Assembly: GCA_016787985.1 (NCBI GenBank)
Contig: JAEUTC010000043.1
Location: 17,145 to 81,144, forward strand
Direction: 5' to 3'
From: Flavobacteriales bacterium
GTDB lineage: Bacteria; Bacteroidota; Bacteroidia; Flavobacteriales_F; PHOS-HE28
DNA length: 64,000 nt
Positions within the stretch are counted from its first letter, which is position 1; every line of letters begins with the position of its first letter. A program made the position numbers and the translations under genes. Under the pieces are notes generated by a model. The model worked only from the letters and a program-made list of their open reading frames with translations. It did no database searches and had not been told where the DNA came from. Of the stretch, positions 45,455 to 49,073 are shown piece after piece.

Positions 45455-46079
45455 TTGGGGAGAGCGTATTCGCCGTTTGGACGTGGAGCGGTGAAAAGGT
45501 CACATACGTCGGATCGGAAGCCTGAAAGAAGGCTGAAGGACGCTGCTTATTGATGAGGATGCCGACCGGTGTGTACCCATGGTGCTACGACGCGAAGCCA
45601 CCTGGGAGAGGCGCTGGCTGATAAAGACACTCAAGCCACCTTGATTGACCCGACTAAAGTCAGTTCACAAAGCACGAGCTTGTTGTGCCTCTTGGCGCGA
45701 AAGTACAGCAGACCACTAAATCGCTGCTACCTTGCAATGAAACGCCATTTTGACATCACAATGCACTACCTACTCACAACTAAGTGGTATCCCAGAGCTC
45801 TAGGTTGCGCCATTATGTCATTTGACCAGCGCTCCAACAGCCTTCCTCTCTACAAGATACGACGTCCTACCCACACCTGAGTTATGAACGACTTGCTGTT
45901 CCATGACAATACCCACTCTTGAATCAAAGAATCCATCATTTGACTGATTATCTGACACTTATATCCTCCTCTACTGCCCACATACAACACAACCGGTCAA
46001 GTTAGTTATTAAGGGGTCCTCATTCTGACACGGTATTTGGATGTAACATTGTGCAGCACACCAGATTGTTGATAACATG

Positions 46080-46110
46080 TTGACAAGAAAACGCACAGAG
46101 GGTAGATTTG
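46080..46110 (+). promoter_or_regulatory. Candidate Bacteroidota sigma-A promoter for the islet operon (TTG-N20-TAGATTTG)
   Basis: TTG at 46080-46082 and TAGATTTG (TAnnTTTG consensus) at 46103-46110, about 55 nt upstream of the first ATG (46166). It is overlapped by the imperfect palindrome TTGATAACA|TGTTGACAA (46069-46086, 7 of 9 pairs). Confidence 0.35.
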
Positions 46111-46165
46111 GCAAATATTTGGAGGCGTCCAGCAGAAGGTCTTCGACTAATGAACTCTAAGGCCG

Positions 46166-46396
46166 ATGAATCCAATTGAACTAGCAGACCTCATTAGGCA
46201 GTACTCGACTAATGCCAAGGTCAATCGTGAGAACTACGAGGCTGAGTTGCTTCGCATTGTTCAGGACGAGAATCAATTCAACGAACGCGTAATCAACCTT
46301 CATCGCGAGCGTGAACGAATGGAGGAAGAAGCAGAAGCCAATCGCTCATTCGATCCTGAAGTACTTCGTGTTGTGATATCTTATAAGGCCCGTTGA
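46166..46396 (+). CDS. Islet gene A: 76-aa highly charged, predicted all-helical (coiled-coil-like) protein, unknown function
   Basis: MNPIELADLIRQYSTNAKVNRENYEAELLRIVQDENQFNERVINLHRERERMEEEAEANRSF... It has no Cys/His metal motif, no TM segment and no HTH pattern that I can recognise. It ends 21 nt before gene B. Confidence 0.6.
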   Translation: MNPIELADLIRQYSTNAKVNRENYEAELLRIVQDENQFNERVINLHRERERMEEEAEANRSFDPEVLRVVISYKAR

Positions 46397-46417
46397 GTTC
46401 TACGCTCAACGCTAATA

Positions 46418-48013
46418 ATGACATCAAGTTCTTCCTGGTCTCACTACATCTGCCCAGAAGCTCAGAGTCCAAGTGAGTGGATTCTTGAGACTCTAGTCAA
46501 AATTGCAAGGAAACGCTTTCCCAGCTATAAGTACAAGGACTTAAAGAGAGATGCCCATCTCGGTTACTTCGCGGACTACTTCTCAAGTCAATCTAGGTTC
46601 ATCGCGGCAACAATCATATGTGAGCACGAATATCACAGTGTGAGCTATGCGAGTGACTATTCGAGGTATTATAGTCAAGCGCATCGCAACATTGAGAAGA
46701 AAGTTGCTCGGATTCACTTCTTCTCAGAACGTCTTCCTCGTAAAACTATAATTGATTCGTTAGGTACAGCAAATTTTAAAACGTACGTCGCAGAGAATTA
46801 TCTTGGTCATATAACGCTGAAGCCCATTCTAAACTCACTTGTAGGAGCCTCTATAGTCAAGACATACCCACAAACGAAAGCCAGATTTTTTTCCGTTGTA
46901 CGGAACTATACCGTCAATCTCTTTGGAGAAGACATTAATTTAAAATCACTTGTATTCCAACAACAAGATGGCGCGGTAAGCGCATGTGCCACTGCTGCAC
47001 TATGGATGGCCTTCCACAAAACACATCTTGATTTCAGACATGCACTGCATACACCTCACGAAATCACATCACTAGCAGGCTATGGGGACGGTGTTGGTCG
47101 AAACTTTCCCAGCACAGGACTTGATGTAAACCAAATTATTTCCGCAATAGCTGCCCATGGCCTCGACCCTGAGTTGCGCACTCGAAACAAGTTTAAGACT
47201 ACATATCTGAAAGACGACCAACTCGTCACAGAGTCGGTGCTTGAACCCATTTTCCTAAAACGATTCGCATATTCATACCTATCAGCTCAAATACCAGTGC
47301 TACTTGGCTTCAACTATGGTACTGCGTATCACCTAGTCACACTAAACGGATACCGTTTTGTTGATGACGAGAAAGAAATTATGTCCTTGAATCATGTCAA
47401 AGACGACCATCCAATGATAGCTGATTATTTATGCCGACTTTATTGTCATGATGATCAAATTGGCCCTTTCGCTCGAATTGGTTTTCCTCAGTATTTTCCG
47501 AATGCAATTTCTTTCATGCAGGAAAGCAAAATAGCTTACCCCAGAGTTTTGATTGTGCCTTTGCAAACTAGTATAAGAGTGAATTATAATGACATTAGCG
47601 ATGTAGTGCGATGGACACATCTTCAATATAAAGTGCCGGGGCAGCCAACGCCATATATATGGGATATTAGACTCCTCCGCAGTAATGACTACAAAAGGAC
47701 AGCATGCCGCAATCGAGGAATTTTACCATCGATTCGAGAAAAAATCGTAACCGCCTCATTGCCTAAATATGTTTGGGTTGCCTCCCAATACGCTGCGACA
47801 GATTTGCAACACCCTCTAATGGACATGGTATTTGATTCAACTGGCACTCGTGGTGCCTTCTGTTGTGACATGATTCATTTCTATAGTCCTGCCCAAGCAA
47901 ATCTGGCTCGAAGAGTATTTGAACAGGTACTAGCAAGTAGTAAGGATGACTACCCCGACTTTTATGCAGACATGATCGTCGAGTCCGCAACGAAACACCT
48001 TGCAAACACATGA
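46418..48013 (+). CDS. Islet gene B: 531-aa protein with a central clan-CA (papain / C39_2 / phytochelatin-synthase-like) Cys-His core flanked by unknown N- and C-terminal domains
   Basis: FQQQDGAVSAC(190)ATAALWMAF follows the Q-x6-C-[AG]-x-[AT]-[AS]-L-x-M oxyanion-Gln/nucleophile-Cys pattern. AYH(305)LVTLNGY follows the GH.VV..GY His-strand pattern. LYCHD(345)D(346)QIGP is a candidate third residue. Codons were verified: TGT at 46985-46987 and CAC at 47330-47332. Confidence 0.85.
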   Translation: MTSSSSWSHYICPEAQSPSEWILETLVKIARKRFPSYKYKDLKRDAHLGYFADYFSSQSRFIAATIICEHEYHSVSYASDYSRYYSQAHRNIEKKVARIHFFSERLPRKTIIDSLGTANFKTYVAENYLGHITLKPILNSLVGASIVKTYPQTKARFFSVVRNYTVNLFGEDINLKSLVFQQQDGAVSACATAALWMAFHKTHLDFRHALHTPHEITSLAGYGDGVGRNFPSTGLDVNQIISAIAAHGLDPELRTRNKFKTTYLKDDQLVTESVLEPIFLKRFAYSYLSAQIPVLLGFNYGTAYHLVTLNGYRFVDDEKEIMSLNHVKDDHPMIADYLCRLYCHDDQIGPFARIGFPQYFPNAISFMQESKIAYPRVLIVPLQTSIRVNYNDISDVVRWTHLQYKVPGQPTPYIWDIRLLRSNDYKRTACRNRGILPSIREKIVTASLPKYVWVASQYAATDLQHPLMDMVFDSTGTRGAFCCDMIHFYSPAQANLARRVFEQVLASSKDDYPDFYADMIVESATKHLANT

Positions 48014-48732
48014 ACTACCTGGCAAAATATCAAGGAGCAACCAAATCATGGGTGCATGAGCCCGTATCAAATGAAAGACTAGTTGAAGACCTACCTGAGT
48101 TGCTGAGTAAGGTGAATAGAGACCTCGACTTTGTCTGTATGTTCAATGGTGGTGATTGGAGTGAGCTCAATTTAGTGCTTCAGAATCCAGAGTTTCAAAA
48201 GGAGCTGCATGAAATAAGCAAGAATAAAGTTCTCTTTGTTCATCTCGTTATGAAAGGCCGAAATGATACTGGAGAGCGATTCGGCGATTTGGCACAAATC
48301 GAATTCGGCGATGACAGTAGAGCCGAATTTTGGCGAGCCTTTCTGGCGAAGAATTTTAAAGATCGGGCAGGTTCTTACATAGAGGAAATGTCTGACCTTC
48401 TAAGCAGGCCGTCAATCGCAATTTTTCGATTGTTCCGTAACTTGGATTCTAACGAAGCTCAGAGTATTGAAGATGCATTTGTACAGCCATTAATGCCAGT
48501 TTCGCGGGCAGCATACGAGAGAGACCCACTTAAGGTAGACGACATTTATGAATCCACTCTGGAGTACTTCAAGCTCATTAATGATCAAATCATTAGTGAC
48601 CAGCAACATTGGCAGGACATGAAAAAAAGAGAAGATATGCGCACATGGCTGGAGCCCCTAATCAAGAACACCCCAAAGGGGGTAAGTCTCTCAAAAATAA
48701 TTGTAATGAGCGCTTCTCAGTTCTTTGGATAA
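48010..48732 (+). CDS. Islet gene C: 240-aa soluble protein of unknown function, translationally coupled to gene B
   Basis: ATGA start/stop overlap at 48010-48013. No TM segment, signal peptide, P-loop, nuclease or other catalytic motif recognised. Same low G+C as gene B. Confidence 0.8.
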   Translation: MNYLAKYQGATKSWVHEPVSNERLVEDLPELLSKVNRDLDFVCMFNGGDWSELNLVLQNPEFQKELHEISKNKVLFVHLVMKGRNDTGERFGDLAQIEFGDDSRAEFWRAFLAKNFKDRAGSYIEEMSDLLSRPSIAIFRLFRNLDSNEAQSIEDAFVQPLMPVSRAAYERDPLKVDDIYESTLEYFKLINDQIISDQQHWQDMKKREDMRTWLEPLIKNTPKGVSLSKIIVMSASQFFG

Positions 48733-48998
48733 ATGTGAGTACAGGCTTCCTCATTTCTTGGCTGTAAACTTCACAAAGGTTCGGCCAAGTGATAGCCGGG
48801 TGGCCGGAGGGTGCCCCGTTAATCCAAGTCTCATTCAAAAAGGGTACTCAAAACACCACTTTGGAAAGAAGAAAGGTTGTCAAAGAACAACTTTGGCTGA
48901 TTCAGGGTGGACAAGAGTAGAACCAATTGCTAGTTAACTCAATTTATGGCTGTGCGATGTACGTTAATGCATGATGCACACACTAAAAGTAATTCATG

Positions 48999-49073
48999 TG
49001 GGCAATGCCGGATTCGAACCAGCGACCCCTACCTTGTCGAGGTAGTGCTCTGAACCAGCTGAGCTAATTGCCC
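48999..49073 (-). tRNA. tRNA-Val (anticodon GAC), no encoded CCA; unusual C at canonical position 33
   Basis: Manual cloverleaf: GGGCAAT TA GCTC AGCTGGTTCA GAGC A CTACC TCGACAA GGTAG GGGTC GCTGG TTCGAAT CCGGC ATTGCCC A. All four stems pair, with one G-U in the T stem. The overall sequence resembles bacterial tRNA-Val. Confidence 0.85.

Follow-up and report, generated by a model that had tools for sequence, protein, structure and literature searches.

Which kind of enzyme is encoded by an open reading frame (ORF) of 531 amino acids (aa) whose papain-like active-site motifs lie between two domains of no recognised family, and with which genes does it work? The gene is located in a 64,000-nucleotide (nt) stretch of a Flavobacteriales bacterium genome (assembly GCA_016787985.1, contig JAEUTC010000043.1, positions 17,145 to 81,144), referred to here as the window. 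A sequence-only reading of this stretch had proposed a Gln/Cys...His...Asp core of peptidase clan CA with a resemblance to the C39 bacteriocin-processing and phytochelatin-synthase types, and had regarded the protein as a possible effector or activating protease of an operon. We describe here that the protein is very probably a clan-CA cysteine peptidase with an obligate small partner. The genes of the two proteins form a self-contained, horizontally mobile two-gene cassette, in which the partner is encoded directly upstream of the peptidase.

Re-reading of the DNA returned exactly the ORF, the motifs and the numbering of Q183, C190, H305, D345 and D346 that had been reported before. Residues 180-200 read FQQQDGAVSACATAALWMAFH, residues 303-312 AYHLVTLNGY and residues 341-350 LYCHDDQIGP. 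A word-indexed search of 5.8 billion proteins identified 76 homologues of the peptidase. In an alignment of 52 database homologues (23-38% identity) Q183, D184, C190, H305, G311, D345, D346 and G349 are invariant, and a core alignment of 77 loci, a separate genome-derived set from bacteria and archaea, revealed invariance of Q183, C190, A191, H305, G311, H344, D345, D346, G349 and P350. As the invariance holds across both homologue sets, the motif pattern is not a product of chance; C190 and H305, which homologues were expected to share if the sequence-only reading was correct, are conserved in every member of the two sets. The peptidase is predicted to be catalytically intact, with Gln183 at the oxyanion hole, Cys190 as the nucleophile, His305 and Asp345/Asp346.

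An AlphaFold2 model was calculated from the 52-sequence alignment and reached a mean predicted local distance difference test (pLDDT) score of 90.3 and a predicted template modelling (pTM) score of 0.92, with nothing below a pLDDT of 50. In this model C190 opens a helix (residues 190-205), H305 is located on a strand (303-314) and D345 closes the next strand (338-345), an arrangement which, as modelled, is canonical for clan CA. The core adopts the alpha+beta fold of papain-like enzymes, in which the Cys begins a helix and the His is placed on a strand of the second lobe, while the catalytic Cys and His, the Asp as third residue and the oxyanion-hole Gln preceding the Cys are those that are invariant in the 52 and 77 homologues. 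The closest structural neighbours are Staphopain C (8oig, score 15.1), the pseudomurein endoisopeptidase PeiR (8z4h, 14.4), the double-glycine protease LahT150 (6mpz, 14.3), PCAT1 (8vp3, 14.3), the ComA peptidase domain (5xe8, 14.0; 128 residues at 2.1 A), a C39-like peptidase of B. anthracis (3erv, 13.1) and the phytochelatin-synthase-like protein Alr0975 (2btw, 13.0), followed by Streptopain and UfSP/ZUFSP (11-12.5) and by ATG4A and Josephin-type proteins (JOS clippases, Josephin-2; 7.7-9.0). Foldseek is in agreement, with ComA, LahT150 and staphopain found at a probability of 1.0 and target-normalised TM scores of 0.58-0.70; its alignments span only about 130-190 residues, corresponding to residues ~176-370. 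By modelled structure and active-site conservation the 531-aa protein is therefore a clan-CA peptidase, and the core assignment made from the motifs is recovered as a papain fold.

The peptidase and four ORFs next to it gave no significant match in Pfam, NCBIfam or PADLOC. A clan-CA profile match, which the sequence-only reading had called for, was thus absent above threshold, and all that was seen was a weak, sub-threshold similarity of 8 of the 52 homologues to Peptidase_C39_2 (best E 0.0028). Sequence searches of the Protein Data Bank (PDB), made with the sequence itself and with profiles of the full-length protein and of the core, detected no relative and no C39 chain; matches to an MBT repeat of L3MBTL3 and to alanyl-tRNA synthetase (E ~0.6-0.8) were discarded as noise. 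Alignment of the core with the profile of ComA PEP by hhalign was not significant (probability 0.3%), and H305 was still paired with H96 of ComA. At curated thresholds the protein matches neither the C39 profiles (MEROPS C39; Pfam PF03412 and PF13529) nor the phytochelatin synthase profile (MEROPS C83, PF05023), and gamma-glutamylcysteine transpeptidase chemistry, which defines the latter family, is likewise not in evidence. It thus stands outside families C39 and C83: the resemblance noted from the motifs is found again in the structural neighbours ComA, LahT150, 3erv and Alr0975 and does not extend to membership in either family.

The core is embedded between an N-terminal alpha/beta domain, in which Y72, R98, H100, F102, Y128, G130, G143 and G170 are invariant, and a C-terminal domain with an invariant D473 and a near-invariant W453. 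No solved structural relative was found for the N-terminal domain. For the C-terminal domain, Foldseek with the full-length model yielded no match other than papain folds above a probability of ~0.4, and Pfam yielded none, in line with the earlier remark that the regions flanking the core resemble nothing recognisable. An internal duplication, suspected from the similar order of secondary structure elements in the two domains, was dismissed after hhalign gave no homology, and the C-terminal extensions of longer homologues contain no Pfam domains. According to the high pTM, the three domains would be packed into a single rigid body, unlike a protease to which sensors are flexibly tethered.

Hydropathy analysis bears out the earlier statement that the protein has neither a signal peptide nor a transmembrane (TM) segment: the highest Kyte-Doolittle mean over 19 residues is 1.24, and the N-terminus contains neither a hydrophobic stretch nor a signal-like sequence. 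From its sequence the peptidase is predicted to be cytoplasmic. The first ATG is the correct start, because the matches of the family profile set in at residues 2-8 of the homologues and order in the model starts at residue 7. In the public annotation an identical protein of a metagenome-assembled genome (Flavobacteriales bacterium JNN32_02285) comprises 457 aa and starts with a GTG at residue 75. This start removes 74 residues of the conserved and confidently modelled N-terminal domain (46418-46640 in the window) and was probably mis-called.

A papain-fold core could also serve a chemistry other than proteolysis, acting as an amidase, acyltransferase, amide synthase or lyase on a small-molecule or cell-wall-type substrate. 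We consider this quite improbable here, given that the closest structural matches are true peptidases, that the cytoplasmic protein has no biosynthetic genes in its neighbourhood, and that a conserved peptide-like partner points to a protein or peptide ligand.

This partner is encoded by a 76-aa ORF that lies in the same reading frame as the peptidase. A small ORF on the same strand is found directly upstream of the peptidase gene in 76 of about 80 usable loci, archaeal loci included; the loci outside this count were cut by contig ends. Relative to the peptidase start, the small ORFs end between -35 and +120 nt, in most cases no more than ~30 nt away, and encode proteins of ~55-75 aa. None of the 76 homologues of the peptidase is fused to such a protein. 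The small proteins are divergent, so that phmmer directly connects 26 of them and an iterated hidden Markov model (HMM) unites 45 of the 76. When this HMM was run against 8,896 ORFs of at least 30 aa from all loci, it yielded 51 matches, all of them directly upstream of the peptidase. Pairwise ratios of non-synonymous to synonymous polymorphism (pN/pS) range from 0.06 to 0.59, showing that the small ORFs are under purifying selection. Scans with Pfam, NCBIfam and PADLOC detected no domain in the 76-aa protein, whose N-terminal part is variable and charged.

Conservation is concentrated in a C-terminal dodecapeptide that ends at the stop codon. Counted back from the stop codon, the positions of the tail profile are hydrophobic at -18 (84%) and -12 (93%), Asp, Ser or Thr at -11, acidic at -9, Leu at -7 (58 of 68), hydrophobic at -3 (79%), Thr or Ser at -2 and hydrophobic at -1 (76%). 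A loose regular expression for this tail matched 54 of the 76 upstream ORFs as against 88 of 4,088 ORFs of similar size. Most tails terminate at the conserved position, and a few continue for one to three residues (KAR in the window, NL in locus L037, YP in locus L082). Genes of 52-55 aa annotated in RefSeq also precede family members of ~720 aa on plasmids of Pseudomonas aeruginosa and Shewanella baltica. The tails of these plasmid proteins, ...VTATLLAKTCSL and ...SELHQRYNR, fit the pattern, and the ~720-aa subfamily shares 25% identity with the window peptidase.

Several individual loci deviate. In L094 (P. aeruginosa) and L095 (S. baltica) the longer peptidase (~720 aa) carries a C-terminal extension of ~200 aa and the same small upstream gene is kept. 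In L001 and L097 the tails of the small proteins are longer (...LIDAEEERSQK.QT.DSYAKSQTF[DN]V). Two further loci look like decayed copies: a transposase fragment of the insertion sequence type replaces the small gene in L096 (5996-7000), and in L099 (6606-8197) the peptidase frame is split by a frameshift.

What would such a partner do? The fixed register of the tail from the C-terminus suggests that the chain end is recognised, and the rapid divergence of the remaining sequence is better explained by an antitoxin, inhibitor or ligand than by a conserved modifier. The hydrophobic -12/-7 spacing recalls the double-glycine leaders that are bound by C39 domains. We infer groove binding by the tail, inhibition of the peptidase and a role in conflict or defence. 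The leader-peptide-like tail of the 76-aa protein (FDPEVLRVVISY, then KAR) would plug the substrate groove in the manner of a pseudo-substrate or a product, its C-terminal end placed at the active site, and the small protein would hold the peptidase silent. Upon stress, or upon invasion by a phage or mobile element, the small protein would be lost or displaced, and the peptidase thereby freed could cleave proteins of the cell or of the invader. Precedents exist for both elements of this scheme. In the staphopain-staphostatin and SpeB-Spi operons the gene of a papain-fold protease is accompanied by that of a cytoplasmic inhibitor dedicated to it, and the neutralisation of a toxin by the C-terminal tail of its antitoxin is common among type II systems. 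Of the readings considered we therefore favour, tentatively, that of a plugged, toxin-antitoxin-like or abortive-infection-type module.

The same tail could belong to a substrate instead of an inhibitor. The peptidase might mature, cut or transpeptidate the small protein, either by trimming KAR-like extensions or by cutting the variable N-terminal part from a conserved 'follower' tail, or by transferring the small protein as a tag in the manner of phytochelatin synthase or sortase. The structural neighbours do include leader-cleaving C39 peptidases, the transpeptidase-like Alr0975 and the processing enzymes UfSP, ZUFSP, ATG4 and Josephin of ubiquitin-like proteins. The few tails with one to three extra residues resemble pro-ubiquitin-like proteins, and the register measured from the C-terminus is also in accordance with a substrate. 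Yet most tails already end at -1 and thus offer no scissile bond for an acyl-enzyme. The neighbourhood contains no conserved transporter, modifying enzyme or partner of the E1-like or ATP-using type, and outside the tail the small protein shows little conservation, unlike modifiers or signalling peptides; neither an exporter nor a signal sequence is present. We rate a substrate role as unlikely.

The distribution of the family bears on the question whether the cassette acts in conflict at all. A profile search of 1.84 billion representative proteins revealed at least 5,596 clusters at 50% identity (E <= 1e-3), of which 3,005 were found at E <= 1e-30, and the top 150 are all full-length proteins of 475-714 aa. 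Among the representative genomes of GTDB, one per species, relatives are encoded by 241 of 185,579 species. They occur in Bacteroidota, Pseudomonadota, Planctomycetota, Acidobacteriota, Zixibacteria, Armatimonadota and Nitrospirota and, among archaea, in Methanobacteriota, Thermoplasmatales and Methanophagales. The distribution is patchy, and the family has spread horizontally. It was found on 4 plasmids, is rare in IMG/VR (4 contigs) and absent from 50,697 phage genomes, on which grounds an origin from phages was rejected.

A housekeeping or regulatory protease complex, in which the small protein is a subunit, adaptor or chaperone that for instance completes a flanking domain, would need no role in conflict. 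The rigid three-domain body suggested by the pTM of 0.92, which is not a flexible sensor architecture, the obligate pairing and the position of some loci among ordinary metabolic genes would suit such a complex. Its probability is low, as so sparse and horizontally transferred a distribution in bacteria and archaea argues against it, together with a genomic context that is not conserved, the low-GC islet in the window (see below) and the occurrence elsewhere on plasmids and conjugative elements and next to integrases or transposases.

Inspection of the individual loci gave the following picture. The cassette is accompanied by a type I restriction-modification (R-M) system and an integrase in one setting and adjoins AbiGi in another locus; further neighbours are TraG-type conjugation genes, recombinases with RHS genes, a NACHT protein with nucleases, resolvases and transposases. 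In the Hymenobacter loci L002, L021 and L078 it is flanked on one side by a gene for a Peptidase_C14 (caspase-like) protein of ~590 aa. On the other side L002 and L078 encode a caspase-DEAD helicase fusion of ~1,017 aa, and the Hymenobacter loci may represent a larger protease-rich island. Tn3 accompanies a TrlF ATPase at one cassette locus. The pooled scan of the 149 nearest neighbours added prokaryotic Argonaute (pAgo), restriction enzymes of types I and IIG and candidate families of PADLOC to this list, along with housekeeping genes. These neighbourhoods are suggestive of defence or mobile regions, an association that is based on individual examples.

Some loci deserve separate mention. On the P. 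aeruginosa plasmid p4782_002 (L094, 4712-7115) the cassette directly follows a multiubiquitin/ThiF/DUF6527 (Bil-like) system and ImmA/IrrE, and on pS19501 of S. baltica OS195 (L095, 4627-7013) it comes after a TrlF-family ATPase. The proteins most closely related to that of the window (38-39% identity) are found in L001 (2362-12373) and L097 (2146-9667). Both loci have the fixed order of a helix-turn-helix gene, the small ORF, the peptidase, a gene of 253 or 259 aa, a 205-aa gene and a TraG/TrwB coupling protein, and this context resembles a conjugative element of Bacteroidota.

In the window the cassette is located in an islet of low GC content that was recognised in the composition profile and is bordered by a gene for an extracytoplasmic function (ECF) sigma factor and by tRNA-Val; the flanking genes are housekeeping genes. 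The coordinates are given in Table 1. The Rfam scan detected only the tRNA. An integrase is absent from the islet, and the far border of the islet shows no convincing direct repeat of the 3' end of the tRNA, of the kind expected for an att site. Upstream of the small ORF a sigma-70-like site overlaps a box that resembles the Bacteroidota -7 consensus TAnnTTTG, and TTGACA-17-TAGATT/TAGATTTG is a putative promoter of the cassette; the total number of hits in the consensus scan was no higher than in shuffled sequences. About 700 nt of the islet upstream (45460-46165) and ~260 nt downstream (48733-48997) of the cassette genes hold no supported gene. A 103-aa ORF with a GTG start (45569-45880) and a 70-aa ORF (48725-48937) gave no matches.

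Table 1 Positions of the cassette, its parts and its surroundings in the window
Feature	Position	Strand	Remarks
Low-GC islet	45500..48990	.	3.4 kb; GC ~0.44 compared with ~0.59 in the window
Candidate cassette promoter	46080..46110	+	TTGACA-17-TAGATT, sigma-70-like
Bacteroidota-type -7 box	46103-46110	+	TAGATTTG; 56 nt upstream of the small ORF
76-aa partner gene	46166..46396	+	Ends 21 nt before the peptidase start
Conserved tail of the partner, F62-Y73	46349-46384		FDPEVLRVVISY; preceded by S, followed by three extra residues (KAR)
Peptidase gene	46418..48013	+	ATG start, 531 aa; ORF and translation; predicted clan-CA (papain-fold) Cys peptidase
N-terminal alpha/beta domain	46418..46951	+	Residues 1-178
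Papain-like catalytic core	46943..47533	+	Residues ~176-372
Codon of Q183	46964-46966		Predicted oxyanion-hole residue
Codon of C190	46985-46987		Predicted nucleophile
Codon of H305	47330-47332		Predicted catalytic residue
Codons of D345/D346	47450-47455		Predicted catalytic residues
C-terminal domain	47528..48010	+	Residues 371-531
240-aa ORFan	48010..48732	+	Overlaps the peptidase stop codon (ATGA); within the islet
tRNA-Val(GAC)	48998..49073	-	Abuts the islet; ARAGORN; Rfam tRNA, 64.6 bits

A third gene, encoding 240 aa, follows the peptidase in the islet. According to the sequence-only reading the peptidase could serve a larger operon as its effector or activating protease and act on both the small upstream protein and this downstream protein. 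The overlap of the 240-aa gene with the peptidase stop codon and the low GC content that it shares with the islet would agree with that proposal. Against it, none of 84 related loci encodes a homologue of the 240-aa protein, which matches only itself among 5.8 billion proteins, and the gene next downstream differs in family, strand and distance between loci. Pfam, PADLOC and NCBIfam gave no match for it either. Clustering of the neighbours in the 84 loci revealed, beyond the peptidase, no cluster present in more than 7 loci. The cassette thus consists of two genes, as none of the further genes is conserved, and the 240-aa gene, an ORFan, is a lineage-specific passenger. It was rejected as a third component, and a larger operon is highly improbable.

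Several observations weigh against the reading of the pair as a plugged, toxin-antitoxin-like module. The tail of the window protein has three extra residues, and the closest relatives L001 and L097 have deviant tails. The likeness to double-glycine leaders is partial, since the tail lacks both Gly-Gly and a cargo and differs at the other hydrophobic positions. The small protein lacks the DNA-binding domain of typical type II antitoxins, and a peptidase of ~520 aa with two extra domains is far larger than typical toxins. Neither the peptidase nor its neighbours in the window matched PADLOC (PADLOC-DB v2). The association with defence islands is anecdotal, and several loci have ordinary housekeeping neighbours. 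The near-absence from phage genomes, which might be counted here too, is neutral with respect to defence. Rather doubtful is the wider interpretation that the window pair is the first example of a widespread undescribed conflict or immune module of bacteria and archaea, whose papain-fold protease with its two novel domains would be gated by the 'cargo-less leader' tail of a ~60-aa protein as plug or trigger, or would tag targets by transpeptidation without an E1.

A search of the literature found no description of the peptidase family or of the two-gene cassette. The enzyme belongs to a known kind, whereas its architecture, its partner and both flanking domains are new. The peptidase represents a lineage without a Pfam or NCBIfam family, yet with thousands of 50%-identity clusters in bacteria and archaea. 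Its strict pairing with a tail registered from the C-terminus offers a testable mechanism by which a cytoplasmic protease could be restrained or aimed, and with its occurrence in mobile contexts close to defence genes the cassette is a credible candidate for a new system of the toxin-antitoxin or anti-phage type. If this is true, a protease-based two-gene module would be added to the repertoire of defence and toxin-antitoxin systems, along with two new domain folds and a mode of leader-peptide recognition reused inside the cell.

Among known systems, the C39 domains of PCAT/AMS transporters (ComA PEP, 3k8u/5xe8; LahT150, 6mpz; PCAT1) are related to the window peptidase in structure without sequence-level membership. 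Whereas C39 domains belong to or accompany ABC bacteriocin exporters, the window peptidase stands alone in the predicted cytoplasm: it is not fused to an ABC transporter and none is located nearby, in keeping with the lack of a TM segment and of a transporter conserved in the 84 loci. It further differs by its additional N- and C-terminal domains of ~175 and ~160 aa and by an insert of 23 residues between the His and Asp strands. The tail of the partner ends with Thr/Ser-[Ile/Leu/Val] instead of the Gly-Gly (or Gly-Ala/Ser) of C39 leaders and carries no cargo. The staphopain/staphostatin pairs (ScpA/ScpB, SspB/SspC; 8oig, 1pxv, 1y4h) consist of a protease secreted as a zymogen with a propeptide and a beta-barrel inhibitor of ~110 aa encoded downstream, whereas here the enzyme is predicted to be cytoplasmic and the partner is a probably helical protein of ~60 aa encoded upstream; the taxa differ as well. 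Compared with Alr0975 (2btw, C83) and Peptidase_C39_2 (3erv), the window peptidase remains below the Pfam thresholds and has a different domain architecture, and no evidence for glutathione-type substrates was found.

Type II toxin-antitoxin modules and minimal two-gene defence systems offer the remaining comparison. The cassette is unlike type II modules in that the 'toxin' would be a very large cysteine protease that matches no PADLOC model, and in that Pfam, NCBIfam and PADLOC detect no DNA-binding domain in the 76-aa protein. It is like them in the tight linkage of a small gene to a larger one (76 of ~80 loci, mostly ~0-30 nt apart, 21 nt in the window) and in the fast divergence of the small upstream gene except for its C-terminal motif. 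Like them, finally, it is a self-contained mobile pair found on plasmids and conjugative elements and near R-M, abortive infection (Abi), pAgo and Bil-like systems.

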